Shown here: positions 1 to 30,625 of the stretch, in pieces | Position numbering within the stretch: position 1 is the stretch's first letter | Layout: the number at the start of each line of letters is the position of its first letter | NCBI GenBank assembly: GCA_951812855.1 | Contig: OX638337.1 | Coordinates: 1,170,001 to 1,202,000 of the forward strand | DNA length: 32,000 nt | Source of the DNA: an uncultured Lentisphaeria bacterium | GTDB taxonomy: Bacteria; Verrucomicrobiota; Lentisphaeria; JABSQK01; JAJFLO01 | Reading direction: 5' to 3' | The notes under the pieces: model-generated | What the model was told of the DNA's origin: nothing | The model's input: the letters and a program-made list of their open reading frames with translations, nothing else | Databases searched by the model: none | Position numbers and translations under genes: made by a program

Positions 1-1279
1 AAAAATAAAAGAAGATAAAAGAAGTTTGCTTGTAAGTGGTATTTTAATAGCACTCAAAAATAAAGATTTTTACAGGAGTTACTCGGAGTTATCAAGTAAC
101 AAGATGTTAGTAGAAGCACTTGTCAGCACCATTAAAGAACAGCTCGATAAAGATTTACAAGGTAATAAAGTTGAGAGACTGATGGAAAACTACAGTTTTA
201 TCAAAAGTCACCCAAGCCTAATACATAAAAATGAAAATAGAGACCTTAAAAACTTAAACAAATTAATTGATGAGATTGATAATAATATTAATGGTTATTC
301 AAGAACATATAAATACTATGATGTTTTGGGGCAATTTTATATCGAGTTTTTAAGATATTCTAATGCCGATAAGGGATTAGGTATTGTCTTAACGCCACCC
401 CATATAACAGAGTTTTTTGCTGATATTGTGGATATACAGTATGCTGATGTTGTATTTGATAATTGCACAGGTACAGGCGGATTCTTGGTATCGGCAATGA
501 AAAAGATGATTGAGAAATGTGGTGGTGATTCATCGCAAGAAAACAATATAAAACATCATCGGCTATATGGAGTCGAATACCAACCTGAAATATACCCACT
601 TGCCGTATCTAATATGCTCTTACACGGAGATGGCAAGAGCAATATTGTTGGCGGTAGTTGTTTTGATAACGACACCATTAAAAAAATTAAAGAAAAAAAG
701 CCAACAGTTGGTTTTTTAAACCCCCCCTATAAATCAGAAAAAAACGATATAGAAGAATTTGAATTTGTATTAAACAATTTAGATTGCTTAGAGAAGCACG
801 GCAGGTGTGTAGCTATAGTACCTATGAGTTGTTCCTTAGCACAAAAAGGGCAAAGGTTAAGATTAAAAGAAAAACTGCTATCTAAACACACTTTAAAAGC
901 GGTGTTTTCTATGCCTAATGAATTGTTTAAAAATTCTAAAGTAGGAGTTGTAACTTGCATAATGGTATTTGAAGCTCACATACCACACCCAGCAAACAAA
1001 AAAACTTTCTTTGGGTATTTTAAAGATGACGGTTTCTATAACAAAAAAACAAAAAATAGGTTTGATTATGATAATCAATGGCAAGGCATAAAAGAGAAGT
1101 GGATAGATTTATATACTAATAATACTGTTAAGGCTGGTTTTAGCGAAGTTTATAAAGTGTCAGCAGACGATGAATGGTGTGCAGAAGCGTATATGGAAAC
1201 TGATTATTCAACACTAAGCAGAGATGACTTTATAGAGACGCTAAAAAAGTATGTCGCCTTTAATGTGTTAAATGGATAA
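1..1279 (+). CDS. hsdM: N6-adenine DNA methyltransferase, type I R-M HsdM-like; 5' end lies outside the window
   Basis: The frame of the 26..1279 ORF has no stop back to base 2, so the gene is 5'-truncated by the window edge. SAM-binding motif DNCTGTGGFL; catalytic GFLNPPYK (NPPY); LGIVLTPPHI and YGVEYQPE...NMLLHGD blocks typical of gamma-class N6 methylases. Confidence 0.85.
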   Translation, partial: KIKEDKRSLLVSGILIALKNKDFYRSYSELSSNKMLVEALVSTIKEQLDKDLQGNKVERLMENYSFIKSHPSLIHKNENRDLKNLNKLIDEIDNNINGYSRTYKYYDVLGQFYIEFLRYSNADKGLGIVLTPPHITEFFADIVDIQYADVVFDNCTGTGGFLVSAMKKMIEKCGGDSSQENNIKHHRLYGVEYQPEIYPLAVSNMLLHGDGKSNIVGGSCFDNDTIKKIKEKKPTVGFLNPPYKSEKNDIEEFEFVLNNLDCLEKHGRCVAIVPMSCSLAQKGQRLRLKEKLLSKHTLKAVFSMPNELFKNSKVGVVTCIMVFEAHIPHPANKKTFFGYFKDDGFYNKKTKNRFDYDNQWQGIKEKWIDLYTNNTVKAGFSEVYKVSADDEWCAEAYMETDYSTLSRDDFIETLKKYVAFNVLNG

Positions 1280-2219
1280 TTTTATGAAAACTGTGCCTCT
1301 ATGTGAAATTTTTGATATTGAGTATGGTAATTCTCTGGCATTATCCGATTTAACAGAAAGCGAAAACGGTGTTTTTTTTGTATCAAGAACAGAAAACCAT
1401 AACGGTGTAAGCACAACAGTCGCTTTAATAGAGAATATTACACCTAATCCAAAGAATACAATTACAGTAGCAGTTGGCGGGTCTGTTATGTCCAGTTTTC
1501 TACAAAAAAGAAACTATTATACTGGCTATCATATATTAATCTTGCACCCTAAAACAAAACTGAGCGATAATGAGATGCTTTATTATTGCATGTGCTTAAG
1601 AGCAAATAAATATAGATATTCATACGGTAGGCAAGCAAACAAAACCCTAGACACCTTATTAGTTCCATCATTGGATAACATTCCTGATTGGGTGAATATA
1701 GCAGAGGTTAAAAATCCAAGTAAAAAACCAATTACAAATAAAGTATTTGAATTAAAAACAAAACAATGGCAATACTTTTTATATACTGATATTTTTGAAA
1801 TCAAAAAAGGAAAAGTGCCAAAAACAATACAAGACGGTAATATATTTTTAGTAAGTGCTACTGGATTAAATAATGGTGTATCTAAAACCATATCAAGTTC
1901 AGTTATACCAAATAACCGAAATTTAATCACGGTATCTTCAAACGGTGATGTTGGAGATGCTTTCTATCAAAACAAAGAATTTTATGCAACAGGTGATATA
2001 AATATTTTAATTCCTAAGTTTAAAACAAATCCACTTATCTCTATGTTTTTAAATACATTAATTAGACGAGAGAAATTTAGATTTAATTATGGCAGGAAAT
2101 GGAGTAAGGAAAAAATGTTAAATCATAAAATTAAATTACCTGTGGATAAAAATAACCAACCTGATTGGCAATTTATGGAAAATTATATTAAGACATTACC
2201 TTATTCAAAATTATTATGA
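1272..2219 (+). CDS. hsdS: R-M specificity (S) subunit with two tandem target-recognition domains
   Basis: Its start overlaps the methylase stop by 8 nt (ATGGATAA), implying translational coupling. Internal two-fold repeat: both halves end in an F-R-(Y/F)-x-Y-G-R ... PDW block (YRYSYGRQANK...IPDW and FRFNYGRKWSK...QPDW). At 315 aa it is short and lacks obvious long helical spacers. Confidence 0.7.
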   Translation: MDNFMKTVPLCEIFDIEYGNSLALSDLTESENGVFFVSRTENHNGVSTTVALIENITPNPKNTITVAVGGSVMSSFLQKRNYYTGYHILILHPKTKLSDNEMLYYCMCLRANKYRYSYGRQANKTLDTLLVPSLDNIPDWVNIAEVKNPSKKPITNKVFELKTKQWQYFLYTDIFEIKKGKVPKTIQDGNIFLVSATGLNNGVSKTISSSVIPNNRNLITVSSNGDVGDAFYQNKEFYATGDINILIPKFKTNPLISMFLNTLIRREKFRFNYGRKWSKEKMLNHKIKLPVDKNNQPDWQFMENYIKTLPYSKLL

Positions 2220-3589: not shown

Positions 3590-3731
3590 TATTTATATCA
3601 TTTCCTGATTTTTAAAAATTGACTGCTGATATAAACTGCATCATCATTGGTACTGGGAATTTCAATATCTCAATCGAAAACAGTTTGAATATCGTTGGAT
3701 TCCTGCCAAAATCGCAAACTTGCTTTTCAAT

Positions 3732-4397
3732 ATGAATGATATATATATCTTTTTAATATGTTTAATCACCTTTGTATCAGGAATCAGTTTTTGTATTTAT
3801 TTACACTCCAGAGGAGTAAAAACAACACACGTACGTGATTTCTTACATATCATCACAGTTTTATGGTTATTCAGCTGGACATATTGGCAAAATAAAATTT
3901 GTCCAATTGTATTTGTCCTGAGTATATTTTGCATTATAACCGTCACTCCCAAACTCCTGAAAAAGGTTTCGTTTCTTTCCAAATTAAGCAAGAGTGTTTC
4001 GAATCAGGACGAAAAATGGTCAGGTGTTATCTTATATGTATTTGCATATTTAGTTTTTACTGTCCTGGGGTTTTCCCGTTCGCTTTTTCCAGCGGCATGT
4101 GCATTGGCCGTTTTATCAATCGGTGATGGTGTGGGTGGGCTGACAGGCAGTAAATTTGGTAAACTCAAATATAAAATCCCATGGTCTAAACCAAAATCAT
4201 ACATTGGTTCAACTGCAGTGTTTTTGGGATCCTTTGCCTCAATACTCTTTATGAAATGGTGGTTTGACTATACACTCTCGCTGACTTCCGCAGTTATCGT
4301 TGCCATAGTTGCAACCCTGATAGAAGCTGCATCGCCGAAAACGTCAGATAATATCTTAATGCCGGCGTCGGTATATTTAATCCTCGAAATTCTTTGA
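3732..4397 (+). CDS. integral membrane protein, CTP-dependent diacylglycerol/polyprenol (dolichol/phytol) kinase or CdsA superfamily
   Basis: Multiple hydrophobic helices. The SIGDGVGGLTGSKFGK ... KSYIGS block resembles the GD-x-A/G...G-x-x-x-G-K...K-S/T-x-E/G-G motif of the CTP_transf_1/dolichol-kinase family. Start taken at ATG 3732 rather than TTG 3720. Divergent from psd. Confidence 0.55.
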   Translation: MNDIYIFLICLITFVSGISFCIYLHSRGVKTTHVRDFLHIITVLWLFSWTYWQNKICPIVFVLSIFCIITVTPKLLKKVSFLSKLSKSVSNQDEKWSGVILYVFAYLVFTVLGFSRSLFPAACALAVLSIGDGVGGLTGSKFGKLKYKIPWSKPKSYIGSTAVFLGSFASILFMKWWFDYTLSLTSAVIVAIVATLIEAASPKTSDNILMPASVYLILEIL

Positions 4398-7492: not shown

Positions 7493-8185
7493 TTACTCGC
7501 TAAATTTATACCCATCACCATGAACAGTTTTAATATAAACTGATCCGGCACCGAGTTTTTTGCGTAGAGAAGACATATGTACATCAATCGTTCTATATGT
7601 TATAAATGAGTCTTCACCCATTACATCACTAATGATTTTTTCCCTACTCATTACCCATCCAGGATGTTTGGCTAACAATTCCAAAATACGAAATTCATTA
7701 GCTGTTAATTCCAGCTTTTTCGTCCCCACCATTACATCCCGAGTATTAGGGTCAAGTGTTAATTTCCCCCGAATTATTTTTTCATCACTTTCGTATTGTG
7801 ATTCTTTTCTTTCGTGTCGACGTAAAACACTGGCAATTCGAGCTAAAAGAATTCTCGGACTAAACGGTTTCTTTATATAGTCATCGGCTCCGATTTTTAA
7901 TCCGACAACTTCATCTGTTTCTTCCTTCCTGGCAGTAAGCATCATAATCGGAATTGAATTAAATTCGGGATTAGTTTTTAATCGATAACAAACCTGATGT
8001 CCATCCATTCCCGGCATCATTAAATCCAATAAAATCAAATCGGGTTTTAGAAGCTCACATAATCTTATTCCTTCCTCACCATCACGTGCTTTGTTAACGG
8101 AGAATCCATCCTTTTCAAGATGATAAGATAACATTTCAAGAATATCAGGTTCATCATCTATTACTAATATCGTTTTTTTCGGCAT
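7493..8185 (-). CDS. phoB: OmpR/PhoB-family response regulator
   Basis: Receiver domain ILVIDDEPDI...DLILLDLMMPGMDG...KPF; C-terminal winged-helix LTANEFRILELLA...GDGYKF. Context is next to phoU and phoR. Confidence 0.85.
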   Translation of the reverse strand: MPKKTILVIDDEPDILEMLSYHLEKDGFSVNKARDGEEGIRLCELLKPDLILLDLMMPGMDGHQVCYRLKTNPEFNSIPIMMLTARKEETDEVVGLKIGADDYIKKPFSPRILLARIASVLRRHERKESQYESDEKIIRGKLTLDPNTRDVMVGTKKLELTANEFRILELLAKHPGWVMSREKIISDVMGEDSFITYRTIDVHMSSLRKKLGAGSVYIKTVHGDGYKFSE

Positions 8186-8234: not shown

Positions 8235-8897
8235 CTATTTACCGGAAATATGATGGCGAACAATTTCTCCCTGGGTCATATACAATACATCTTCAGCAAT
8301 ATTAGTGGCAGAGTCACCAATCCGTTCGATAGTCCGTGATACGGAAATTAAAAATAGAAGAGGTTCCATCCGATCCGGACATTCTTTAAGTTGCTGTTTG
8401 TATTCAGCAATAACTTCATTATTGAGTTTATCGACGATATCATCGTTCTGACATACCCTGGTTGCCAGAGGAGAATCCAGATTGACAAGTGAGTCAAGAC
8501 TCATTTTTACCATTTTTTGGGTTTCGTCGAACATTAAAGAAAGTTTTTGAGAGATTTGAATTTTTTCGTATTTTGCTATTTCCAAAACATACTCAGCAAT
8601 TTTTGCTGCTAAATCACCGATACGCTCTAAATCATTATTCATTTTTAAAAGACCAATAATCATTCTTAAATCCTTGGCAACAGGCTGATACAGTGCCATT
8701 ATTTTCAGACAATCTTCCTCAAATTCAACTTCATGTTCATCTATTTTCTTATCATAATCAATGACCTTTTGAGCCAGGACAAGATCAAAATTCGCCAACG
8801 CTTTATACGAACTTTTTATTGCATTTTCTATTTCAGCACTCAGTTCCAGTATTTCATCTTTTAAATTTTTTATTCCACGTTCTAAATGGGTGATCAT
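8235..8897 (-). CDS. phoU: phosphate signalling/transport accessory protein PhoU
   Basis: Two PhoU repeats with E-R-I-G-D motifs (DLERIGDLAAKIAE and TIERIGDSATNIAE); follows pstB. Confidence 0.9.
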   Translation of the reverse strand: MITHLERGIKNLKDEILELSAEIENAIKSSYKALANFDLVLAQKVIDYDKKIDEHEVEFEEDCLKIMALYQPVAKDLRMIIGLLKMNNDLERIGDLAAKIAEYVLEIAKYEKIQISQKLSLMFDETQKMVKMSLDSLVNLDSPLATRVCQNDDIVDKLNNEVIAEYKQQLKECPDRMEPLLFLISVSRTIERIGDSATNIAEDVLYMTQGEIVRHHISGK

Positions 8898-8936
8898 TCA
8901 AGTCTCCTGACAAATTAAAAATATAACCGTTTATTA

Positions 8937-9710
8937 TTATCCAAATCGTCCGCTGATATAATCTTCTGTTTGTTTTTCATGAGGGTTACTGAATATGTGT
9001 TCGGTGTCGCCGCATTCTATTAACTTACCCAGATAAAAAAATGCCGTTCTATCCGATATACGCGAAGCCTGCTGCATGTTGTGTGTCACAATGATAATCG
9101 TAAATTTTTTCTTCAGTTCTAAAATCGTTTCTTCAATTTTACCGGCAGCAATCGGATCCAGTGCTGAACAGGGTTCATCCATCAAAATAATTTCAGGCTT
9201 GATTGCGATGGTTCTGGCAATACATAGACGTTGAGTCTGACCTCCGGACAAACCCAATGCACTCGAATGAAGTCTGTCTTTTACCTCATCCCATAATGCC
9301 GCATTTATTAAACTTTCTTCTACAGCATTGTCCAGAACTTCCTTATCTTTTATACCTGCTATTCGTAACCCAAAAACAATATTTTCATAAATGCTTTTTG
9401 GAAAAGGGTTTGATTTTTGAAAGATCATACCAACTCGTTTACGTAAACCTATAACATCCAGGTCCCGTGTATAGATGCTCTGACCTATCAGTTGAATATC
9501 ACCCTCATGATTTGTATTTTCAATTAAATCATTCATCCGATTGATGCTGCGCAATAAAGTTGATTTTCCACATCCTGACGGACCGATAAAGGCAATAATT
9601 TCATTATTGACAACTCTCAGGTCAATGTCAAAAAGCACCTGATTTAGACCGTAATAAAAACTAAAATTATTAATCGAAATAATGTCTGAATTTCGTTTAA
9701 CGCTGGTCAC
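8937..9710 (-). CDS. pstB: phosphate ABC transporter ATP-binding protein
   Basis: Walker [10 protein letters not shown]; signature [13 protein letters not shown]; Walker [13 protein letters not shown]; characteristic PstB C-terminus [10 protein letters not shown]. Confidence 0.95.
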
Positions 9711-9790
9711 TGTGATTTCACTTTTATTTGATGTTCACAGTCCATGACAACTGCCTGATTCAATGATTAACGGTTCCACAAATTGCATAA

Positions 9791-11473
9791 TTAAATTGCG
9801 CTCATTGAATATTTTTTTCGCAGCTTTTCACGTACTGTTACAGCAGTAAGATTAAGGATAACAACTAATAGTATCAAAAATAATGTTGTCGCAAATACCA
9901 TCGGTTTTGCCGCTTCTGAATCAGGTGATTGAAAACCAAGATCATATATATGAAATCCCAAATGCATAAATTTCTGATCTAAATGAAAAAAGGGATAAAT
10001 ACCGTCAACCGGTAATGATGGCGCCAGTTTGACAACGCCAACAAGCATCAACGGGGCAACTTCCCCGGCACCTCTGGCCATTGCTAAAATTACTCCGGTT
10101 AATATACCCGGCACTGAAGCAGGCAGTACAATCCGGTATAAACACTGCCATTTTGATGCACCGCATGCAAGACCGGCTTCTCTTAAACCTCGCGGAACCG
10201 CTGATAACCCTTCTTCAGTTGCGACAATAACAATCGGCACAGTAAGTAATGCCAGTGTCAATGAAGCCCATAATATACCTCCGGTACCAAATGTCGGTGT
10301 TGGCAACGACTCGGAAAAAAATAATTTATCAATGGAGCCGCCTAAAAAATAAACAAAAAAACCAAGCCCGAAAACACCAAATACAATTGATGGAACTCCC
10401 GCGAGATTATTAACTCCGATTCTCACTAATCGCACCCATACACCTTTGCTGGCGTATTCATGGAGATAAATTGCAGTAATAATACCAAAGGGTGTCACGA
10501 TCAATGTCATAACAAGGGTCATGATAAATGTTCCAAAAATCGATGGAAAAATTCCCCCCTCTGTATTCGCTTCTCTTGGATTACTTACGATAAAATTGGA
10601 TATATTTTGGAAAAATCCAAAAAGTTTGTCTGAAATCGACATTTGATTCGGATAATGATAATTAATAATTGAACCTAATGGAATGATTATACGCTTCCCT
10701 GTAATCAAGCGACATTGGAGTTTGTGCGAATTCTGAGTCTGACGCAGCCGGGAGGCTCTCTCAGCGAGTTGTTCATACTCTTTCTGCAATGATTTTAATT
10801 TCTCCTCAAGTCCCTTTAGTGAATCGGGATCATCGGTTGTCCGCTTTTGCAATTGGAAGGATTTAATCTTTCTGTTTATTTTTCCTATTTCTGCTTTTTC
10901 CAATTTTTTTATTTCATCCCGCCGATCCGCAACCTCATTTACAAGCGTGGAAAATTGCCCTTCAAATATACTTGAATCACTGTCAATAGCAGTGTCATTA
11001 TCTATTATAATTTTTTCGGGATAACCGATCAAATTACCATATTCTTCACGTTCAATTTTTATGAGCTGCCCGGGTTTTGTGATTGTTTTAATATCACCGG
11101 CATCAATATAAAAAAACGAAAATCCATAGTGATCCTTATTACCGACATATAACTGCCATTCCATATTCGATTCATTTGGGTCCCCGCTTTTTTTAACCTC
11201 AGCAATAGATTTTTGCTGCTTAAGAACGATTTCACCACCTAATATTTTTGAACCGTCGATATGTGTCTGACTATCCTGATTAAGTGTAATTTGGACAATG
11301 TCTTTTATCCAGAATGCCCTCGTTCCTTCCCAGACAATCAGACCAATAATAAAAAACACCATCAATAAACAAAGTGAAAGTCCAAGGCCTGACAGCCAGA
11401 TATAACAATCTCCTTTAGGTGGCTTTTTCAACACACTTTCCGAATTAATAAGGTTTCTATCTATATCGGTCAT
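9791..11473 (-). CDS. pstA: phosphate ABC transporter permease PstA, long form with a large extracytoplasmic insert
   Basis: C-terminal permease core with the ARGAGEVAPLMLVG motif. One N-terminal TM is followed by a roughly 250-270 aa non-hydrophobic region that includes a Lys/Glu-rich probable coiled coil (EIKKLEKAEIGK...LKSLQKEYEQLAERASRLRQ). 4-nt overlap with pstC. Confidence 0.9.
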   Translation of the reverse strand: MTDIDRNLINSESVLKKPPKGDCYIWLSGLGLSLCLLMVFFIIGLIVWEGTRAFWIKDIVQITLNQDSQTHIDGSKILGGEIVLKQQKSIAEVKKSGDPNESNMEWQLYVGNKDHYGFSFFYIDAGDIKTITKPGQLIKIEREEYGNLIGYPEKIIIDNDTAIDSDSSIFEGQFSTLVNEVADRRDEIKKLEKAEIGKINRKIKSFQLQKRTTDDPDSLKGLEEKLKSLQKEYEQLAERASRLRQTQNSHKLQCRLITGKRIIIPLGSIINYHYPNQMSISDKLFGFFQNISNFIVSNPREANTEGGIFPSIFGTFIMTLVMTLIVTPFGIITAIYLHEYASKGVWVRLVRIGVNNLAGVPSIVFGVFGLGFFVYFLGGSIDKLFFSESLPTPTFGTGGILWASLTLALLTVPIVIVATEEGLSAVPRGLREAGLACGASKWQCLYRIVLPASVPGILTGVILAMARGAGEVAPLMLVGVVKLAPSLPVDGIYPFFHLDQKFMHLGFHIYDLGFQSPDSEAAKPMVFATTLFLILLVVILNLTAVTVREKLRKKYSMSAI

Positions 11474-13737
11474 ATCGTTTTATACTTTTTCCTTAAATAT
11501 TGTCGCAAAACTTCGGCAATTGTGTTGAGTATAAACGTAAAGATAAATAAAATCATGGCACTGAAAAACAACGTCCGATAAAGGGTTCCTTTATATGGTG
11601 CCTCGGGTAATTCTACGGCAATATTTGCAGACAATGTCCTCATACCTGAAAACATATCAAAATTCATGACCGGCGTGTTGCCGGTTGCCATAAGGACAAT
11701 CATTGTTTCGCCAATAGCCCTTCCAAAACCGATTATCAATCCTGAAAATATCCCTGCGGATGCTGTGGGAATTACAATGTTAAAACAGGTTTGCCATCGA
11801 CTTGCTCCTAACGCCATTGATGCAGAAGTTAAATTTTTAGGAACATTCGTTAATGCATCTTCAGAAATTGAAAAGATGATGGGGATGACAGCGAAGCCCA
11901 TTATAAATCCAACCAAAATAGCGTTTCTTTGTTCAAACGGGACCCCCGAATTTTGTGAATACCAAAGGGTAAAATTTGCTGCTGTTTCGTTTGTACCGGG
12001 ATTCCTTACAGAAAAAAAACTGGATTCAACAATCGGAGAGATATACCACGACAGCACCCCGCCCGCAAAAATAACAAAAAATAAAATAAGGTACTCATAA
12101 CCAATGTGACAATTCTTTGTCAATGATGTCGGCAGCAATGACCAAACCCAGGCAAAAAGCAACGTGCTAACCGGTAAAATAATCATTGTTAAAAACAAGA
12201 AAATAATATTTTTTTCAAAAACGGGAGCCAGCCATAATGCCGCAAGAAAACCAAGAACAACCGAGGGAAGTGACGCCATAATTTCCATCGTCGGTTTAAT
12301 AATAGCACGATATCGGAAACTAAGAAATTGAGATGTATAAATCGCTGCAAGCAATGCAATTGGACTGGCAAAAATCATCGCATAAAAGGTCCCTTTCAAT
12401 GTCCCGCAAATTAGCGGTATCATAGACATCTTCGGTTCGTATTCATCAGTACCGCCGGTTGACTGCCATTCGTATTTCGGAAACGAAGCACCTTCATACC
12501 AAATTTTTGAAAAATACGCTTGAAAACTGGCTTCAGGATGCGGATCAGACAGGGTTAGAATACGCAATTTATTTGAGTCATCCAGAACTAATATTTTATC
12601 ATATTTTGCACTGATTTTTGCATCTTTTATCTGATAATTTACCTGACTTTCCCAGCGGATTTCTTCAGTTGTTGCATATCGGAGACTGATATAATTTTTA
12701 GTTCCAAGTAAAAACAGTTTATTGCGCAAACTTTGTGCATAAAACTGGAACCTATCAGACAAACTATTTAACGATTTGGTATGATAAAATATTCGGCTGC
12801 TTTCAAATTCGGGAACGAGTAAACTGTAAATCCGGTTTTCTCCTGTCTTCGAAGTAAAGACCAATGAAACTCCGCCGAATAAGAAATTGATCGAGTCAAT
12901 TTCAGAATTACTCAAATCTTGAAATGGTTGAAAGACCTGCATTAGATCACAGGAATTCGGATTGATTTTAAAATAGTACACATCCCCGGACAATGTTGTT
13001 ATAACTAAAATATCGCCTTGAGAATTAATACGGATTTTATCGGGTGTACCATCAATTTGATCATTGAATTTGTAGCGATTACGAATACTAATTTTGCCCG
13101 CTCCAAACAGTGTTTTTTTCTGGCTTAAGCTGATAGCTGATACTTCTTGCTGTCCATCAATTTCCTGCATGGCTGCTATAAATTTATTTTTCCCGGAATC
13201 TCCATACTCGATCATATGAATAGGAAAGCCTTGTCTACCGATCTGATAGTTACTGTCAACCTTGGGCTTTACCGATAGCTTACGAATATTATTATCGAAT
13301 TGTTCGTCATAATTTAATTTAACAATTTTAACGGCCCCATCATTTGTGCCGCAAATCAATTCCTGCCGATTTTGATTATAATTTATAGTTGAAAAGGTAT
13401 CGCCATCAGCTAACGAGAAATTACTGATATTGCCAATATTATGTTCCAAATCAACAAAACGAAAATTACCTTTACGATCTAAAACAAATGGAAGTTCAGA
13501 CCATTCATCCAGACCAACAAGCTCATATTCTCCAGCCGGCAAATCAATAACGATATCTTCACTAATCTCAGGTTTCTGAAACAGCGGCAGTGTCTGAAAA
13601 AAAATAAAAATAAAAATACTGAACACAATCGCCACAACACATATCCCGCCAAAACGGATTAATTTTCCCATAAAACTGTCAACCAGAATGACCTGTCTTG
13701 CGGTATGATATCGATTTTCTATTTTTTTTTTAACCAT
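11470..13737 (-). CDS. pstC: phosphate ABC transporter permease PstC, long form with a ~400 aa N-terminal extracytoplasmic domain
   Basis: C-terminal permease core with GRAIGETMIVLMATGN. One N-terminal TM, then a long non-hydrophobic beta-rich region before the membrane domain starts near MIPLICGTLKGTFYAMIF. Confidence 0.9.
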   Translation of the reverse strand: MVKKKIENRYHTARQVILVDSFMGKLIRFGGICVVAIVFSIFIFIFFQTLPLFQKPEISEDIVIDLPAGEYELVGLDEWSELPFVLDRKGNFRFVDLEHNIGNISNFSLADGDTFSTINYNQNRQELICGTNDGAVKIVKLNYDEQFDNNIRKLSVKPKVDSNYQIGRQGFPIHMIEYGDSGKNKFIAAMQEIDGQQEVSAISLSQKKTLFGAGKISIRNRYKFNDQIDGTPDKIRINSQGDILVITTLSGDVYYFKINPNSCDLMQVFQPFQDLSNSEIDSINFLFGGVSLVFTSKTGENRIYSLLVPEFESSRIFYHTKSLNSLSDRFQFYAQSLRNKLFLLGTKNYISLRYATTEEIRWESQVNYQIKDAKISAKYDKILVLDDSNKLRILTLSDPHPEASFQAYFSKIWYEGASFPKYEWQSTGGTDEYEPKMSMIPLICGTLKGTFYAMIFASPIALLAAIYTSQFLSFRYRAIIKPTMEIMASLPSVVLGFLAALWLAPVFEKNIIFLFLTMIILPVSTLLFAWVWSLLPTSLTKNCHIGYEYLILFFVIFAGGVLSWYISPIVESSFFSVRNPGTNETAANFTLWYSQNSGVPFEQRNAILVGFIMGFAVIPIIFSISEDALTNVPKNLTSASMALGASRWQTCFNIVIPTASAGIFSGLIIGFGRAIGETMIVLMATGNTPVMNFDMFSGMRTLSANIAVELPEAPYKGTLYRTLFFSAMILFIFTFILNTIAEVLRQYLRKKYKTI

Positions 13738-13819
13738 TTTATTTAGTGAGAGAAGAGACGATTTGGAGAGATTAACTGCAGTATCAATTCAGTGATGTGA
13801 TTCAAACTGAGGAAAATTT

Positions 13820-14785
13820 TCAATTCAGCTGATCAAGTATTTCCGAACAGGCGAATGCAGGCAGCGGATAATAGCCATCTTTGACAACAATTTGCTGGCC
13901 GCTTTTTGACAGAACATAGGATAAAAATTCCAGTGTCAATTTGTCAATTGATTTATTGGGTTTTTTATTTACATAAACAAAAAGAAATCGTGCTAATGGA
14001 TACTCTCCACTTAAACAATTTTCCATTGATGGGTCTCTATAATCATTGCCCTCATCGGAAAGCGGCAGTGCACGTACACTTGAGGTTTTGTAGCCAATCC
14101 CGGAGTAACCGATTCCTCCCAATTCTGTAGCAATACCTTGAACTACCGACGACGATCCGGGCTGTTCTTTTACATTGACTTTGAAATCACCTTTACCCAA
14201 TGCAACCTTTTTGAAATAAGCATAAGTTCCTGAAGCACTGTTACGTCCGTAAAGTGTAATTGGTTTGCTGTCCCACAAACCACTCAAGCCGACCTGTCCC
14301 CATCTTGAAATTGGATTACCGCCTTTTTTGTAGGTACTCGAAAAAATGCTGTCCACCTGGGATAAGTTTAATCCACTGACAGGATTATTCTTGTGCACAA
14401 ATACAGCCAGAGCATCAACAGCAACCTTGATCTGAGTTGGTTTATAACCGAACTTACTTTCAAACATGTCCAATTCCTTTGCCTTCATTGCCCGACTCAT
14501 CGGTCCTAACTGGGCAATTTCCTCAATAAGTGCCGGCGGTGCTGTAGAAGACCCTTTGCCTTCAATCTGTATCTTGACATTCGGATACATTTTTTGAAAG
14601 CCTTCTGCCCATAGTGTCATCAGATTATTCAAGGTGTCCGAACCGATACTGTTAATCCTGCCTGTAACTCCCGAAACCTTTTTATACAACTTAAGGTCTG
14701 CATCAACCTGAATTACCTGAGACTGGACACTCAATGCCAATCCCGCCAACACACTTAAACTTATAATTTTTATTTTGTTAATCAT
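13820..14785 (-). CDS. pstS: phosphate ABC transporter substrate-binding protein PstS, copy A
   Basis: Signal peptide MINKIKIISLSVLAGLALSV; GSDTL, GKGSSTAP and SASGTYAYF blocks of the PstS/PBP family. Start set at ATG 14785 (GGAGGA SD 5 nt upstream, and the same start as copy B) rather than the track start at 14797. Confidence 0.9.
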   Translation of the reverse strand: MINKIKIISLSVLAGLALSVQSQVIQVDADLKLYKKVSGVTGRINSIGSDTLNNLMTLWAEGFQKMYPNVKIQIEGKGSSTAPPALIEEIAQLGPMSRAMKAKELDMFESKFGYKPTQIKVAVDALAVFVHKNNPVSGLNLSQVDSIFSSTYKKGGNPISRWGQVGLSGLWDSKPITLYGRNSASGTYAYFKKVALGKGDFKVNVKEQPGSSSVVQGIATELGGIGYSGIGYKTSSVRALPLSDEGNDYRDPSMENCLSGEYPLARFLFVYVNKKPNKSIDKLTLEFLSYVLSKSGQQIVVKDGYYPLPAFACSEILDQLN

Positions 14786-14836
14786 GATTTCCTCCATTGT
14801 TGTTTGTAGTTGATAAATTGATGGTGAAACTTACAG

Positions 14837-15020
14837 TTAGAACTTATATACTAAATCGAGTTGAACCAGCCTGCCCTCTCGACTGCTTCCACTGATCTCT
14901 TCAAGATCCATATACGTACTTCCCAGTGACAAGGTATCTTTGAGTTTATATTTGACACTCACTTTATGTCCCTTAACATCCGTAGAAGTCATCCCGGCGG
15001 TATCACCAAAATCACTGTCC
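14837..15020 (-). pseudogene. 3'-terminal fragment of the porin gene (duplicate of 17264-17447)
   Basis: Encodes ...TAGMTSTDVKGHKVSVKYKLKDTLSLGSTYMDLEEISGSSREGRLVQLDLVYKF, identical to the porin C-terminus. The track ORF 14837..15052 is a chimera that runs on into the 3' end of the GT gene in another frame. Confidence 0.85.
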
Positions 15021-16157
15021 GCTCGGGAACTGCACACGCACCACTGCCTCATATATCTCTAACAACAAATTACTTACATAATCCCAGCGAAATTTCGCTG
15101 CTGCCTGACGGCACTTATGTTCGTCAGGCCGCGACTTGTGCACATCATGCATGACCTGAGCGATCGCATTAACGTTCTTTGGGTTTACAGCATGCACAAT
15201 AGACGCATCGTCAATCACGCCGCCGAGCCCTTCACCTTCACCGTGTACTATTGGCAGCCCCTGAGAAAGCGCTTCCAGGTAGACCAAACCGAACGACTCA
15301 TAAAATGAAGGCAATACAAACAGGTCACTTTTTGCATAAACGAGTTTTAGCTCATCCACAGACATACGTCCCTGAATCTGTACATTGCAATCAGGGTGAG
15401 ACGGTGCGAACTGCCTTTCGTAAGAACGGCCTTTGGACTCCGCCGCACCAACAAGAATCACATTAACTGGTGATTTTTCAGCGAATCTCTCAGCAGCGCC
15501 AACCACGTTCTTCAGATTTTTCCATGCCGAAAAATCAGAGGTCGCAACAACGGTAAAAGGTCGATCTTTCGAATCTATGCGCGGTGGATTGTCGGTAAAC
15601 CAGTTGCACTCAATAGCATTAGGTACTACCGAACAACGCACCTCGATATTTGAACGCACCTTTGTTGAGAGACAACCCAAGAATCTTTGTTTGTATGCTG
15701 GTGTTAGAAATACTATTTGACTTGCCTCAGTGAGGATCTTATCGCAGAATCCGTTCAAATCAGGTCGATACTTACGAAAAAAGTTAAGGTCAGTATTCCG
15801 CACGGTAACGATATAGGGTATCCCGAACTGCTGTTTCAGATGATATGCCACACCGCCATCACTGTACAAAAAATGGCTGTGAACCAGTTCATAATCCTCA
15901 ACTGCAACACTCGAGCAGATCGATCTTCGTACCTGCTCGATCTTGAGGTTGTAAAGCAGCCGATGGTAGGGACGCAGAAGATGATCATATATGAACGTCA
16001 CATTGCGGAGATCTTCCAATGCATTCACGCCAACCTCAGCTTCAGTTCGGACCGGGACGAAAACGGTCTGATGTTCACAACTTCGTGACAACTCGGAAAC
16101 AAGGTTTCGACAGACTTTCGATCCCGCATAGTCGCTGGATATATGTAGAATTTTCAT
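15012..16157 (-). CDS. GT4-family (GT-B fold) glycosyltransferase, compositionally foreign
   Basis: N-terminal MKILHISSDY...; E-x7-E motif ESFGLVYLEALSQGLPIV. Hand GC counts of 60-nt lines give 31/60 (15121-15180), 27/60 (15421-15480) and 30/60 (15901-15960), against 26/60 in pstS (14221-14280) and 20/60 in pstC (12601-12660). The last three codons (GGA CAG TGA) lie inside the repeat. Confidence 0.8.
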   Translation of the reverse strand: MKILHISSDYAGSKVCRNLVSELSRSCEHQTVFVPVRTEAEVGVNALEDLRNVTFIYDHLLRPYHRLLYNLKIEQVRRSICSSVAVEDYELVHSHFLYSDGGVAYHLKQQFGIPYIVTVRNTDLNFFRKYRPDLNGFCDKILTEASQIVFLTPAYKQRFLGCLSTKVRSNIEVRCSVVPNAIECNWFTDNPPRIDSKDRPFTVVATSDFSAWKNLKNVVGAAERFAEKSPVNVILVGAAESKGRSYERQFAPSHPDCNVQIQGRMSVDELKLVYAKSDLFVLPSFYESFGLVYLEALSQGLPIVHGEGEGLGGVIDDASIVHAVNPKNVNAIAQVMHDVHKSRPDEHKCRQAAAKFRWDYVSNLLLEIYEAVVRVQFPSGQ

Positions 16158-16164
16158 CGAGCCA

Positions 16165-17447
16165 ATTTTATTTAGTGAGAGAGACGATTTGGAGAGATTA
16201 ACTGCAGTATCAATTCAGTGATGTGATTCAAACTGAGGAAAATTTTCAATTCAGCTGATCAAGTATTTCCGAACAGGCGAATGCAGGCAGCGGATAATAG
16301 CCATCTTTGACAACAATTTGCTGGCCGCTTTTTGACAGAACATAGGATAAAAATTCCAGTGTCAATTTGTCAATTGATTTATTGGGTTTTTTATTTACAT
16401 AAACAAAAAGAAATCGTGCTAATGCATACTCTCCACTTAAACAATTTTCCATTGATGGGTCTCTATAATCATTGCCCTCATCGGAAAGCGGCAGTGCACG
16501 TACACTTGATGTTTTGTAGCCAATCCCGGAGTAACCGATTCCTCCCAATTCTGTAGCAATACCTTGAACTACCGACGACGATCCGGGCTGTTCTTTTACA
16601 TTGACTTTGAAATCACCTTTACCCAATGCAACCTTTTTGAAATAAGCATAAGTTCCTGAAGCACTGTTGCGTCCGTAAAGTGTAATTGGTTTGCTGTCCC
16701 ACAAACCACTCAAGCCGACCTGTCCCCATCTTGAAATTGGATTACCGCCTTTTTTGTAGGTACTCGAAAAAATGCTGTCCACCTGGGATAAGTTTAATCC
16801 ACTGACAGGATTATTCTTGTGCACAAATACAGCCAGAGCATCAACAGCAACCTTGATCTGAGTTGGTTTATAACCGAACTTACTTTCAAACATGTCCAAT
16901 TCCTTTGCCTTCATTGCCCGACTCATCGGTCCTAACTGGGCAATTTCCTCAATAAGTGCCGGCGGTGCTGTAGAAGACCCTTTGCCTTCAATCTGTATCT
17001 TGACATTCGGATACATTTTTTGAAAGCCTTCTGCCCATAGTGTCATCAGATTATTCAAGGTGTCCGAACCGATACTGTTAATCCTGCCTGTAACTCCCGA
17101 AACCTTTTTATACAACTTAAGATCTGCATCAACCTGAATTACCTGAGACTGGACACTCAATGCCAATCCCGCCAACACACTTAAACTTATAATTTTTATT
17201 TTATTAATCATGAATGAGTTACCTTATTATTTGTAGTTGATAAATTGATGGTGAAATTTACAGTTAGAACTTATATACTAAATCGAGTTGAACCAGCCTG
17301 CCCTCTCGACTGCTTCCACTGATTTCTTCAAGATCCATATACGTACTTCCCAGTGACAAGGTATCTTTGAGTTTATATTTGACACTCACTTTATGTCCCT
17401 TAACATCCGTAGAAGTCATCCCGGCGGTATAACCAAAATCACTGTCC
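16165..17447. repeat. 1.28-kb direct repeat, copy B
   Basis: See copy A. Here the repeat continues seamlessly into the full-length porin gene on one side and abuts the GT start region on the other. Confidence 0.9.
16246..17211 (-). CDS. pstS: phosphate ABC transporter substrate-binding protein PstS, copy B
   Basis: 321 aa, differing from copy A by one residue (EYALARF vs EYPLARF) plus four synonymous changes. The upstream RBS patch differs (AAGGTAA-like versus GGAGGA in copy A). Confidence 0.9.
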   Translation of the reverse strand: MINKIKIISLSVLAGLALSVQSQVIQVDADLKLYKKVSGVTGRINSIGSDTLNNLMTLWAEGFQKMYPNVKIQIEGKGSSTAPPALIEEIAQLGPMSRAMKAKELDMFESKFGYKPTQIKVAVDALAVFVHKNNPVSGLNLSQVDSIFSSTYKKGGNPISRWGQVGLSGLWDSKPITLYGRNSASGTYAYFKKVALGKGDFKVNVKEQPGSSSVVQGIATELGGIGYSGIGYKTSSVRALPLSDEGNDYRDPSMENCLSGEYALARFLFVYVNKKPNKSIDKLTLEFLSYVLSKSGQQIVVKDGYYPLPAFACSEILDQLN

Positions 17448-18616
17448 TTTACTTGTTGATACATCGAATCCGCTTCGATAGAGGCAAAGGTATAGCCGAT
17501 TTTCAACCGCCCCATCTCTCCACTCGCACCCAATGCCCAGGCGGTATCATTTTCGTCTGGATCAAGTGCCCGACCACGATTGTCAGTGATTCCAGTATGT
17601 CCAACTGCACCGTCAGCACCGAAATTACTGGCAAGATGTCCGAATAATTTTATTTTCATACCATCAAGTTTGATTTTCATGTGTGAATAAACATCACCCA
17701 CCTTAAAATCGAATTTATCATCAATACCAGCGGCTATGCCGGGCGGTGGATTGGTCCCAATGGTTGCAGCATCATTGAAGTAATAGTAACCACCTGCAAC
17801 TAAAAACTCTGCATCTTCAGACTTCACTTTATAGCCAACCTGAGAACCAACTAAAAATGCGTTCGCCTCGTCTCGGCCAATATGAAAAACATCATAAGCA
17901 CCTGCTGTTGCGAACAGCCCGCCAGTATTCACTGCAGCAGTCAATCCTATTGGACGAACATCACTATCCCAAAGTATGAGTGATGTCTTAAACGGATTTT
18001 TCTGTTGTCCAATTGTTAAATTAATATTTTCCCAACTATGTTTTGAATAAACATAGTCAAGTCGGAGATCACCGGTTTCAAATACACTGTTATCTGAAAA
18101 CGTATCATTAGTACTTGTGGCACCCGAACCACCGGTTGCAATGCCGACGCCTAATTCCCAGTTATCGGCTTCATTTTTCCAGACACCGCCAATTCTGAGG
18201 CGAACACGCTGTCTGTCTCTGGTTTCCTCTTTCCTTACACCACGAGTCCGTTCCTGACGTTCATATCTGAATCGTGCATCACCTTTGATCGCAAGACCGT
18301 TAATTTTTTTACCAAGTTTTACAGTCGGTGTATCCTTGATAACGCTATAGCTTTCATTGAAATCAACCATCTTTTCATCGATATCATTCAACCTGTTTTC
18401 AATAACTGATTGACTTTTATTCTTATTGGCGATTGCCTCATTGTTCTGCTGGAGTTGATTTTTCAATCCATTAATTTCTTTTTGTTGATGCTCTAATTGT
18501 GCCTGTATATCCAGGATGAGTTTTTTTAGTTCTTCAATTTGGGAATCTCCTGAAAATGCGATCTGGTTGGTAAATGTAACAAATAAAAGCGTAGCAGTTA
18601 AGTGTTTTAATTTCAT
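17264..18616 (-). CDS. outer-membrane porin, putatively phosphate-selective and Pho-regulated, with an N-terminal coiled coil
   Basis: Signal peptide MKLKHLTATLLFVTFTNQIAFS; heptad-like Q/E/K/L-rich segment (residues ~25-80); alternating beta-strand pattern ending in the C-terminal aromatic LDLVYKF. It is the first gene of the pst operon and lies behind a Pho-box array. Confidence 0.75.
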   Translation of the reverse strand: MKLKHLTATLLFVTFTNQIAFSGDSQIEELKKLILDIQAQLEHQQKEINGLKNQLQQNNEAIANKNKSQSVIENRLNDIDEKMVDFNESYSVIKDTPTVKLGKKINGLAIKGDARFRYERQERTRGVRKEETRDRQRVRLRIGGVWKNEADNWELGVGIATGGSGATSTNDTFSDNSVFETGDLRLDYVYSKHSWENINLTIGQQKNPFKTSLILWDSDVRPIGLTAAVNTGGLFATAGAYDVFHIGRDEANAFLVGSQVGYKVKSEDAEFLVAGGYYYFNDAATIGTNPPPGIAAGIDDKFDFKVGDVYSHMKIKLDGMKIKLFGHLASNFGADGAVGHTGITDNRGRALDPDENDTAWALGASGEMGRLKIGYTFASIEADSMYQQVKDSDFGYTAGMTSTDVKGHKVSVKYKLKDTLSLGSTYMDLEEISGSSREGRLVQLDLVYKF

Positions 18617-25248: not shown

Positions 25249-26619
25249 ATGAACACAACGATACTGATCATCGCAGGAATTACAGGATGCTGCAGCGGCG
25301 CCGGATTTGTCTGGCTTTTTATGCGTTCCAGAACAGCGATTTTAAACGACAGGCTTTGCCAGATAACAAAAGACAAAGAAGACGTATTAAACAGTCTCGT
25401 CGAAAAAAGCCAAAGCGTTAATCAACTAACGACGAAAGTTACAACTTTAGAAACAACGCTTGCCTTTGAACAAGAAGCAGCTGAAGAAAAAATACAATTA
25501 CTGAATAAGACCACTGAAGAACTGAGAACAACCTTCAAAGCGTTATCATCAGATGCGTTAAAGAGTAATACAGCGTCATTTCTTGATCTCGCTAAATCAA
25601 TGTTTGACAATTATCAGGAACAGTCGAAGAAGGAATTTGAACATAAAGAAAAATCAGTTGAGGGACTTGTAAATCCACTTCAGGAATCCTTAAAAAAGGT
25701 ATCAGCTCAGGTTGAAGAACTGGAAAAGTCTCGTCAAAAAGCATACGGAAGTCTGTCGGAACAAGTTAAATCTCTGGTGACGACACAGGAAAAGTTACGA
25801 TCTGAAACGACTAACCTGACCAAAGCACTTCGGTCACCGACAGTACGGGGAAGATGGGGGGAGATTCAATTAAAAAGAGTTGTCGAAATTGCGGGAATGA
25901 TACCCTATTGTGATTTTTCAGAACAGCAATCTCAAGACGCCGAAGAGGGTAAGCTTCGACCGGATCTAATTGTCAAATTACCGGGCAATAAAAATATCAT
26001 TGTTGATGCGAAAGCTCCCTTAAAGGCCTACCTGGACTCCCTGGACAGTGCTGATGAAAATCAAAAAGCAATTCTTTTAAAAGAACATGCACGGCATATT
26101 CGAGCTCATATCACCCGACTGAGTGCTAAAGCCTATTGGGAACAATTTGACGCAACTCCCGAATTTGTTATCATGTTTTTACCCGGAGAAACATTTTTCA
26201 GTGCTGCACTCGAACAAGATCACAGTATTATTGAAGAAGGTGTTAATCAGCGTGTCATTATTGCTTCTCCAACAACATTAATTGCCCTGCTTAGAGCTGT
26301 AGCCTATGGCTGGAGGCAAGAGCGAATCGCTGATAATGCACAGGCAATAAGCAGCCTGGGTAAAGAGCTTTATGAACGGTTGTGCAATTTAACGGATCAT
26401 TTTATCAGTGTCGGAAAACATCTCGACCGTTCTGTTGAATCATATAATCGTGCAATTGGCACCTTAGAAAAGCGAGTATTAACCTCGGCACGACGTTTTA
26501 CACAACTGGGGTCCGGATCAAAAGAGGACATTCAATATCTTTCAACAATTGAAAAATCCTCTCGGGATATCCTGTCACCCGAATTACGTGAACCTGGTGC
26601 ATCAACTCCCGATGAATAA
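25249..26619 (+). CDS. rmuC: DNA recombination protein RmuC
   Basis: N-terminal TM, a long coiled coil, then the conserved RmuC nuclease-like core (RGRWGEIQLKRVVE, VDAKAPL, VIMFLPGE). Confidence 0.9.
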   Translation: MNTTILIIAGITGCCSGAGFVWLFMRSRTAILNDRLCQITKDKEDVLNSLVEKSQSVNQLTTKVTTLETTLAFEQEAAEEKIQLLNKTTEELRTTFKALSSDALKSNTASFLDLAKSMFDNYQEQSKKEFEHKEKSVEGLVNPLQESLKKVSAQVEELEKSRQKAYGSLSEQVKSLVTTQEKLRSETTNLTKALRSPTVRGRWGEIQLKRVVEIAGMIPYCDFSEQQSQDAEEGKLRPDLIVKLPGNKNIIVDAKAPLKAYLDSLDSADENQKAILLKEHARHIRAHITRLSAKAYWEQFDATPEFVIMFLPGETFFSAALEQDHSIIEEGVNQRVIIASPTTLIALLRAVAYGWRQERIADNAQAISSLGKELYERLCNLTDHFISVGKHLDRSVESYNRAIGTLEKRVLTSARRFTQLGSGSKEDIQYLSTIEKSSRDILSPELREPGASTPDE

Positions 26620-27258
26620 ATTCTCAATTTCAAACCTGCCTGATATGTTTGAAAAAGACCGGATAAAAATGGTTGAAAAAATAAAATCCTATGGTCTTAC
26701 AAATGAACGTATTCATTAATATAATGAAGAGTCTGCCCCGTCACCTTTTTTACCTGACGGTGAGGGTAACAGCCATAGTTATGACGATTACCCAATTAAT
26801 ATTGAATTTGGTCAAACCATTTCTCAGCCTTATATTGCGGCATACATGACAGATTATCTTGATATAAATGAAACGGACAAAATTCTGAAAACAGGAACCG
26901 GATCAGGTTATCAAACAGCAATTTTAGCACTCCCGGGAAGGGACGTTTACACTATTGAAACTGTACCTGAATTATTATCACATGCGACTAAAATAATTAA
27001 TTCTATTGGAATAAAGAATATTAATTTTCTACATGGAAACGGATATAATGGATGGGAAACTGAACACCCCTTTGATAAAATCATTTTAACATGTTCGCCA
27101 AAGAAAATACCAGAAACGCTGATTCGACAATTAACTGAAAATGGAAAACTGATTTTGCCTGCAGGCAATCACTGTGTCTCGTCTCAAATGAGAACGGAAA
27201 CATAACTCAAAAAAGGGATTTACAAGTTAGATTTGTCCCTGTGATTAACGAACAGTAA
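26612..27258 (+). pseudogene. pcm: protein-L-isoaspartate O-methyltransferase gene disrupted by three frameshifts
   Basis: Homology runs through three frames. Frame a: ...DRIKMVEKIKSYGLTNERI, then TAA at 26717. Frame b (26715-26750): INIMKSLPRHLF (conserved PRH). Back to frame a after a T6 run (26746-26751): LPDGEGNSHSYDDYPINIEFGQTISQPYIAAYM...GTGSGYQTAIL...LILPAG. Frame c from ~27166: QSLCLVSNENGNITQKRDLQVRFVPVINEQ-stop (27256-27258). The track ORF 26846..27205 is only the middle piece. Confidence 0.75.
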
Positions 27259-29923: not shown

Positions 29924-30071
29924 AACTAAATGTCCTATCTGCATTTTTATAAGTCAGTCTATTTACATTACCCTGAAATCATTAAATAAATACAAAAATT
30001 TACAGGGTTCAGAATACACAGGAAAAGTTACAATACCCCCGGTTATAAACATAACACAATCCCGATTGAGT

Positions 30072-30110
30072 GAAAAAAAGCAGCAGACGATTAGAAACCG
30101 TCTGCTGCTT
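30072..30110 (-). terminator. strong rho-independent terminator
   Basis: Perfect 12-bp stem aagcagcagacg (30078-30089) / cgtctgctgctt (30099-30110) with a 9-nt loop, followed on the minus strand by TTTTTTT (A-run 30072-30078 on +). It begins 12 nt after the mini-ORF stop. Confidence 0.85.
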
Positions 30111-30121
30111 AAAGTGTGGTT

Positions 30122-30289
30122 TTAATTTATCCTGAAAGCTGTAATACTTGAGCCGGCTAATTGATTTGCCTGTGCCAACATTGTATTTCCAGCCTGAGTT
30201 AGGATTTGAGCATCGGCAAGACTGGTTGATTCCCGTGCCATGTCAACACCTCTTATGCCCTGTTCTGCTGTACGCAGATTAACTTGCAT
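30122..30289 (-). CDS. 55-aa ORF consisting only of a flagellin C-terminal (D0/D1) domain; either a stand-alone mini-protein or the remnant of a deleted flagellin gene
   Basis: Hand translation: MQVNLRTAEQGIRGVDMARESTSLADAQILTQAGNTMLAQANQLAGSSITAFRIN. It matches the flagellin C-terminal signature I-R-x-x-D-x-A-x-E...L...QIL-x-QAG-x-x-MLAQANQ. Below the 60-aa cutoff of the ORF track. An AGGGGG run lies 8 nt upstream of the ATG, and an in-frame stop lies 9 codons upstream. Confidence 0.6.
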   Translation of the reverse strand: MQVNLRTAEQGIRGVDMARESTSLADAQILTQAGNTMLAQANQLAGSSITAFRIN

Positions 30290-30625
30290 TTTTCTAACCC
30301 CCTGTTTTGCTTTCTAATTTTCCCTGGTACGTATAATTTATAATTTGTAATTATTATTCGAAGATATCCATTATCCCGTTACTTTTTTCATCTCTCGATG
30401 ACCAATTGGTGTCTGAGCAACATCATTACTGATTATATTTTATTTCAAAATCAAATTACATAATTATCTGAATTTGAAGGAATTAAAATTTATAAAAATT
30501 TATTTATCACTGTCTGAAAATTAAAAATCATAAAATATTGTTTTTTGTAAACGGCAATTTTCCCCGGATATAAGGAAAAGGGTTAGAACCGCAGGAACAG
30601 CTGTCAGAGAATTTGGAGACAAATA

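Follow-up and report, generated by a model that had tools for sequence, protein, structure and literature searches.

The question raised by this locus is whether a 55-codon open reading frame on the minus strand, which resembles only the C-terminal part of a flagellin, is what remains of a lost flagellin gene or a small protein that has been kept in its own right. The ORF was studied within a 32,000-nt stretch of DNA, referred to here as the window, and by comparison with the same locus in related genomes. The reading preferred here, to which a probability of roughly 93% was assigned, is that the ORF is a non-functional remnant of a chromosomal flagellin gene.

The ORF was located at 30122..30289 (minus strand), and its translation was exactly the one quoted in an earlier, sequence-only reading of the window. 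That reading had recognised a C-terminal flagellin block, and profile comparison bore this out: the ORF matched Pfam Flagellin_C (PF00700) with an E-value of 3.9e-12 and 46.8 bits against a cut-off of 23, a score that is therefore not due to chance, although the match covers only part of the profile (ORF residues 1-45, profile positions 35-79 of 86). The Pfam search gave no match to Flagellin_N (PF00669), the region holding the export signal and the polymerisation surface of flagellins, and only four N-terminal codons are left. As had also been described, an in-frame TAG lies nine codons upstream of the ATG and nothing upstream resembles the rest of a flagellin; no Flagellin_N-like sequence was present there in any frame, and tblastn with full-length relatives found nothing.

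A strong terminator just past the ORF had been reported as well. Its hairpin (30110..30078, minus strand) begins 11 nt past the stop codon, and the 15-bp stem followed by a T-run gave a folding energy of -23.1 kcal/mol. In two related genomes described below (L092 and L083), hairpin terminators were found at the same place, non-homologous to that of the window. The statement that the window holds no other flagellar gene stood and could be extended to 8 kb beyond it, that is, to about 40 kb of the 1.94-Mb contig; neither fliS, fliW/csrA nor genes of the flagellar export apparatus occurred in those 40 kb. An Rfam scan of the window gave no match, and a sigma-70 promoter scan returned fewer matches than shuffled sequence and was uninformative.

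The source of the window is a closed 1.94-Mb contig (ptg000035c), apparently a complete chromosome, and the GC content of the window is about 38%. Contigs were read from ENA sample ERZ18545485. The 55-aa product was found on five contigs, including the 1,941,460-bp ptg000035c (L001), a 1,947,381-bp contig and a 12-kb alternative (L002). The window represents the L002 haplotype, from which L001 differs at 25 positions in 11.9 kb (0.2%).

With the ORF as query, a word-indexed search of a collection of 5.8 billion proteins returned the ORF itself only, and an exhaustive search of 1.84 billion representatives yielded 89 matches. The decisive loci were reached by way of the aminotransferase gene: it was used as query, contigs carrying its homologues were collected, the flagellin of one of them (L090) served as the next query, and the resulting proteins were ranked by identity to the stub. 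This ranking led to P0257, P0274 and P0244, all full-length flagellins, whose C-terminal ends read …NLRAAEQGIRGVDMARESTSLANAQILTQVGNAMLAQANQLPAQVLQLLG. Wherever the source gives a name, members of this flagellin family belong to Lentisphaeraceae or Lentisphaeria. Among the 120 flagellins closest to that of L090 in the 5.8-billion-protein collection, no paralogue was encoded on the 1.94-Mb contig, which gives a slight indication that no close flagellin paralogue survives there.

P0257 is encoded on L092 (GCA_021772675.1), a Lentisphaeria-type MAG. Its true length is 311 aa, with the start at position 7935 (MQVNNNATSF…); the gene caller had chosen a downstream ATG. The order of genes in L092 is Zn-peptidase, helicase, sigma-54 activator, a 136-aa ORF, ThiI and aminotransferase, then, divergent from the aminotransferase, the flagellin, followed by a 75-aa ORF, two hybrid histidine kinases, Iso_dh, M20 peptidase and PCMT. 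Along this segment, L092 and the window lineage are collinear and 70-79% identical in nucleotide sequence. Two further genomes carry a full-length flagellin at the same position: in L090 a 311-aa flagellin gene is divergent from the aminotransferase gene, with ThiI after the latter, and in L094, which encodes P0274, the aminotransferase gene lies upstream of the flagellin gene and is likewise divergent. An intact orthologue is thus present in the syntenic slot of L092, L090 and L094.

Three separate assemblies of another relative, whose aminotransferase is 85% identical (L084, L085 and L086), all break upstream of the aminotransferase gene. L084 (1-460) and L085 (1-385) end within the flagellin 5'UTR, past a stretch unlike either the window or L092; the corresponding part of L086 is 1-107. 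The breaks suggest a repeat or a mobile element at this place. In the same relative, a palindrome of about 100 bp is inserted beside the aminotransferase start, and the ThiI gene is split into two ORFs.

Alignment of the window with these loci, the three-way display of the junction included, gave the following features:

29945..30070, minus strand: short spacer before Iso_dh; about 190 nt if the terminator and the bases that directly follow the stop are included
30071..30110, minus strand: intrinsic terminator of the former flagellin gene (15-bp stem, 3-nt loop, T-run)
30122..30289, minus strand: relic ORF of 55 codons, made of MQVN (codons 1-4), ancestral codons ~263-302 and an 11-residue frameshifted tail
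30127..30156, minus strand: ancestral tail frame, PAQVLQLSG and a TAA stop, readable in the +1 frame and now out of frame
30157..30158, minus strand: 1-nt insertion (extra G after CAA TTR), shifting the frame of the last 9 codons
30278..30285, minus strand: deletion junction AAGT/TAAT, break between 30282 and 30281
30290..30625, minus strand: native flagellin 5'UTR with the intergenic region that lies between it and the divergent aminotransferase gene, 74.5% identical to L092 7590-7946
30416..30431, minus strand: degenerate sigma-54-type -24/-12 element, CAGTAATGATGTTGCT against TTGGCA-N6-YTGC in relatives, with the -24 GG lost

Two blastn matches to L092 delimit the main lesion. The first joins window 30640-30278 (minus strand) to L092 7590-7946 at 74.5% identity and without large indels; it spans the whole intergenic region from the aminotransferase start, the ribosome-binding site and ATG CAA GTY AAT, that is, up to flagellin codon 4. 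The second, at 79.3% identity, joins window 30285-30118 to L092 8713-8880 and resumes at codon 263. Because the alignment is uninterrupted up to codon 4 and resumes in frame at codon 263, a single in-frame deletion of 774 bp (258 codons, 5-262) separates the two genes, by which MQVN was joined to the last ~50 codons. At the junction the two matches share 8 nt, and the full-length L092 gene has imperfect repeats at the two ends of the lost segment, AAGTCAAT in codons 2-4 and AAGATAAT in codons 260-262.

The ribosome-binding site GGGGG was found at 30298-30302 of the window, and a ribosome-binding site with start of the form GGRGGTTA..AAAATGCAAGT is common to L092, L094 and L090. The ORF therefore looks like a well-formed stand-alone gene: an internal in-frame deletion left the native translation start at one end and the terminator at the other. 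The earlier interpretation of the ORF as the relic of a deleted flagellin gene was thereby upheld by the syntenic full-length genes, while its detail that the 5' ~80% of the gene had been removed was not; the deletion is internal, and the 5'UTR, the ribosome-binding site, the ATG and the first four codons have been kept.

An origin of the ATG as a fortuitous start was also considered, as tblastn had stretched the flagellin match to 30310 (AKQGV aligned with residues 252-256). This extension was rejected as spurious. The 8-mer AAACAGGG is present in both the 5'UTR and the coding region, and the nucleotide alignment to the 5'UTR of L092 is continuous and far better.

A second lesion was found at the 3' end, where the last 11 residues of the ORF (AGSSITAFRIN) are not flagellin-like and lie outside the Pfam match. 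The canonical tail PAQVLQLSG, followed by a stop, can be read in the +1 frame, which the sequence-only reading had overlooked. In 119 relatives of this subfamily the extreme C-terminus is LPxQVLQLLG; in its place, the current frame of the window gives LAGSSITAFRIN. When one base was removed after CAA TTA, the Flagellin_C score rose from 46.8 to 54.4 bits and the match reached position 85 of 86. The tail repaired in this way is identical to that of L092 at 8 of 9 residues. The insertion is present in both haplotypes, which differ by a TTA/TTG polymorphism at 30158, and the extra base is absent from L083, L092, L094 and L090.

After frame repair, 45 of the 50 C-terminal residues of the window copy were identical to those of P0257, including the subfamily signature AEQGIRGVDMAREST. 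The window copy thus shares with the P0257-type flagellins (also P0274 and P0244) the chromosomal slot divergent from the aminotransferase gene, the 5'UTR, the ribosome-binding site and the MQVN start. It differs from them by the absence of codons 5-262, which hold Flagellin_N, the variable middle part and the first part of Flagellin_C, as well as by its frameshifted tail and a mutated promoter element.

The promoter element in question is of the sigma-54 type. GG-N10-GC was found at the homologous place in L092, L084, L083, L090 and L094 and was absent in the window and L001; both window haplotypes read the same degenerate element. It lies 99-164 nt upstream of the start codon of the flagellin or its relic in L092, L083, L090 and L094, and the L084 contig ends before any flagellin start codon and so gives no such distance. 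Judging from its match to the consensus, the element probably was a working flagellin promoter in the past. With the -24 GG lost, the stub is probably no longer expressed.

Substitutions in the retained codons were assigned to branches by comparison with L092 and L094, and multi-step Arg and Leu codons were corrected by hand. On the window branch, five replacements (A>T, N>D, V>A, A>T and L>S) and about five synonymous changes were counted, all five amino-acid changes being assigned to the window lineage. In comparison, L092 and L094 together showed one replacement and about 30 synonymous changes. The counts are small (5:5 against 1:30) and differed significantly (Fisher p = 0.0018), corresponding to a roughly 30-fold higher nonsynonymous to synonymous ratio, and protein-level constraint is relaxed on the branch of the stub itself. 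The ratio of 5:5 could not be distinguished from the neutral expectation of 3:1 (p = 0.07), and with only 10 substitutions on this branch the selection test has little power. Two of the five replacements introduced residues never found in 119 family members.

Between the haplotypes, differences were denser in non-genic DNA, a class that here includes the flagellin relic and a PCMT fragment, than in intact genes (4.6 against 1.5 sites per kb; binomial p = 0.006). The ORF itself holds one difference in 168 bp.

Other decayed genes nearby had been cited in favour of a relic. Decay around the stub was seen in the PCMT (protein-L-isoaspartate O-methyltransferase) gene and in gene deletions relative to L092. 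The PCMT gene (window 26612-27205, plus strand) is interrupted by an in-frame TAA (26717-26719), and the 119-aa ORF listed at 26846-27205 corresponds to no more than its distal portion, Pfam positions 65-175 of 210. Together with the flagellin stub, which lies 3 kb away, this makes two decayed genes. Relative to L092, the sigma-54 activator gene and the 136-aa ORF are missing from the window lineage, 1.8 kb having been replaced by 14 nt (L001 6459-6472 against L092 2947-4717). The window lineage also lacks about 5 kb with the 75-aa ORF and the two PAS/HisKA/receiver hybrid histidine kinases, so that about 190 nt (L001 10173-10365; window 29945-30117) stand for L092 8881-13857. At another place, the window lineage has two HSP20 genes (L001 3245-4172) where L092 has 455 nt.

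When MetRS was compared with GTDB species representatives, the best matches were only about 60% identical (Victivallales, Lentisphaeria and Kiritimatiellia) and showed no synteny. Homologues of the aminotransferase gene were also present on contigs of 2.8 and 8.8 Mb. Within the PVC group of phyla the organism stands nearest to Lentisphaeria, and it may have a reduced genome and live in association with a host; a literature search on reduced Lentisphaerae symbionts found nothing relevant.

Taken in sequence, the decay of the gene most probably ran as follows. The ancestor carried a flagellin gene of about 311 codons, divergent from the aminotransferase gene, with a strong intrinsic terminator and probably a sigma-54-type promoter. 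A single illegitimate recombination between the imperfect 8-nt repeats removed the 774 bp, in frame by chance, leaving a 55-codon ORF bracketed by the native 5'UTR, ribosome-binding site and ATG on one side and the terminator on the other. Later decay then added the 1-nt insertion, stripped the promoter of its -24 GG and brought replacements at otherwise conserved positions. The window lineage has probably lost motility.

Three observations run counter to a simple relic. The ORF is open, with a good ribosome-binding site, an ATG and a terminator, and would be translatable if transcribed; the deletion is in frame, an outcome expected by chance in one case out of three; and a 54-codon C-terminal ORF, with intact tail and promoter element, has also been kept in L083, which, with two cases only, might be more than coincidence. 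The same observations, together with the 45 of 50 C-terminal residues that still match a functional relative, speak for the alternative that the stub is expressed as a retained mini-protein, acting as a decoy for FliS, for FliW-CsrA or for an anti-sigma factor, or in some new role. Despite them, this alternative was considered very improbable.

The similarity of the L083 ORF to that of the window called for closer comparison. Its product, P0003, was the nearest of the 89 matches: a 54-aa ORF with Flagellin_C only, 65% identical to the window ORF and with an intact tail (…QLPGQILQLLG). It lies on an 803-bp contig of sample ERZ23498372 that opens with the start of the homologous aminotransferase gene and is therefore syntenic. 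Position, near-equal length and the strong terminator that follows are thus common to both. In L083, however, the relic at 194-484 keeps flagellin residues 241-311 in frame, interrupted by a stop near residue 247. The ATG of P0003 is a native internal Met of flagellin, and L083 has no counterpart of the 5'UTR, ribosome-binding site or start present in full-length genes. The canonical tail and the promoter element (TTGGCATCGCTATTGCC), both damaged in the window, are intact in L083.

Of the two, only L083 has retained codons 241-262 and only the window the 5'UTR and ATG, so neither form can have given rise to the other; on the mapped breakpoints, the L083 relic is an independent truncation, separate from the deletion in the window. 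The idea that P0003 and the window ORF form one conserved mini-protein was accordingly rejected once the breakpoints had been mapped. The impression had arisen from saturated synonymous sites between L083 and the window, a protein still 65% identical and flanking intergenic DNA that could not be aligned. Given the separate breakpoints, the low pairwise dN/dS reflects the long history of both sequences as full-length genes.

Other evidence points the same way. The flagellin C-terminal D0/D1 helix is the binding site of the export chaperone FliS and of FliW, and the stub covers most of it (Flagellin_C positions 35-79), but its final nine residues, LPxQVLQLLG in the relatives, have been replaced by the frameshift in both haplotypes. 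The N-terminal export region is missing, the promoter lacks its GG, the sigma-54 activator gene seen nearby in L092 has no counterpart, and the nonsynonymous to synonymous ratio on the branch is about 30 times that of full-length relatives. The short form was not found as a conserved form in related genomes: the closest relative, L092, is full-length, and L083 is a separate relic with its own in-frame stop. The suggestion that a C-terminal-only product could titrate FliS or FliW is therefore not supported, as the stub has neither a conserved short form, nor an intact C-terminal tail, nor an intact promoter. No gene for a FliS or FliW partner was found near the stub, within the window and 8 kb beyond.

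A related and slightly less probable variant is that the stub is still made as a 55-aa peptide and has been recruited to a new task, such as sequestering a remaining partner of the FliS/FliW type, or some other. Were this true, the 54-codon ORF of L083 could reflect a repeated advantage of keeping the C-terminal helix.

Even less credit was given to the possibility that the coding sequence is dead and has been kept by cis-acting DNA, larger deletions being disfavoured because they would hit the aminotransferase promoter or the terminator that insulates Iso_dh. At 74.5%, the identity of the intergenic region to that of L092 exceeds expectation given a dS of about 1 for the stub; GGAAAAxxTTGCCG upstream of the aminotransferase gene is conserved in five lineages; and a strong terminator, though non-homologous, follows the flagellin stop in every lineage. 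Against this, nothing marks the 150 coding bases as cis-acting, and in the L001 haplotype the terminator already has a stem mismatch, which lowers its folding energy to -17.3 kcal/mol. Such selection would in any case be an addition to the relic explanation and not a true alternative.

The GGAAAA(n)(n)TTGCCG motif lies at about 30538-30553 of the window, some 75 nt upstream of the aminotransferase start codon. It was also found in L084, L092, L083 and L094 and, more weakly, in L090, in intergenic DNA that has otherwise diverged, and may serve to regulate the aminotransferase gene.

The weakest alternative, an assembly artefact that hides a full-length flagellin gene of the real genome, has nothing specific in its favour beyond the metagenomic origin of the assembly and was dismissed because the deletion and the frameshift are common to two haplotypes 0.2% apart, the 55-aa product being present on all five contigs mentioned above.

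A flagellin gene reduced to a remnant by deletion is a kind of feature already known. Flagellar genes decay in host-restricted or non-motile bacteria, as Shigella and Yersinia pestis show with pseudogenes for flagellin or flagellar regulators, and fliC has been lost in Buchnera. The locus studied here is similar in that a motility gene has been inactivated, in this case by deletion and frameshift, amid other gene loss nearby, and the independent inactivation in a related lineage (L083) is a further likeness. It differs in that the lineage is an uncultured one of the PVC group and in that an in-frame deletion has left a gene-like ORF.

This last point has a practical side. An in-frame internal deletion can leave an ORF with a ribosome-binding site, an ATG, a domain match and a terminator, which annotation pipelines call a "Flagellin_C protein", and the case is a caution for small-ORF discovery. 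As a relic, the ORF marks a probable loss of motility and a reductive course of evolution in an uncultured Lentisphaeria-like lineage with a 1.94-Mb chromosome, the relatives of which keep the full gene.

Some observations made elsewhere are added here. In the search of representatives, P0002 (197 aa) was found to consist of three tandem flagellin C-terminal blocks (IRDVDMAKEM…LTQAGQSMLTQANQ) without Flagellin_N; it is unrelated to the locus. Within the window, genes for a type I restriction-modification methylase and specificity subunit stand at the very start (26-2219, plus strand), and a 225-aa ORF at 3720-4397 (plus strand) gave no Pfam match. A phosphate-uptake cluster occupies 8235-18616 (minus strand), with a putative porin, PhoU and PstB, and adjoins a PhoR/PhoB-like pair. 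The cluster is unusual in several respects: it includes two PstS-like binding proteins (13820-14797 and 16246-17211) with a GT4 glycosyltransferase between them (15012-16157), and its permeases are very long, at 755 and 560 aa.
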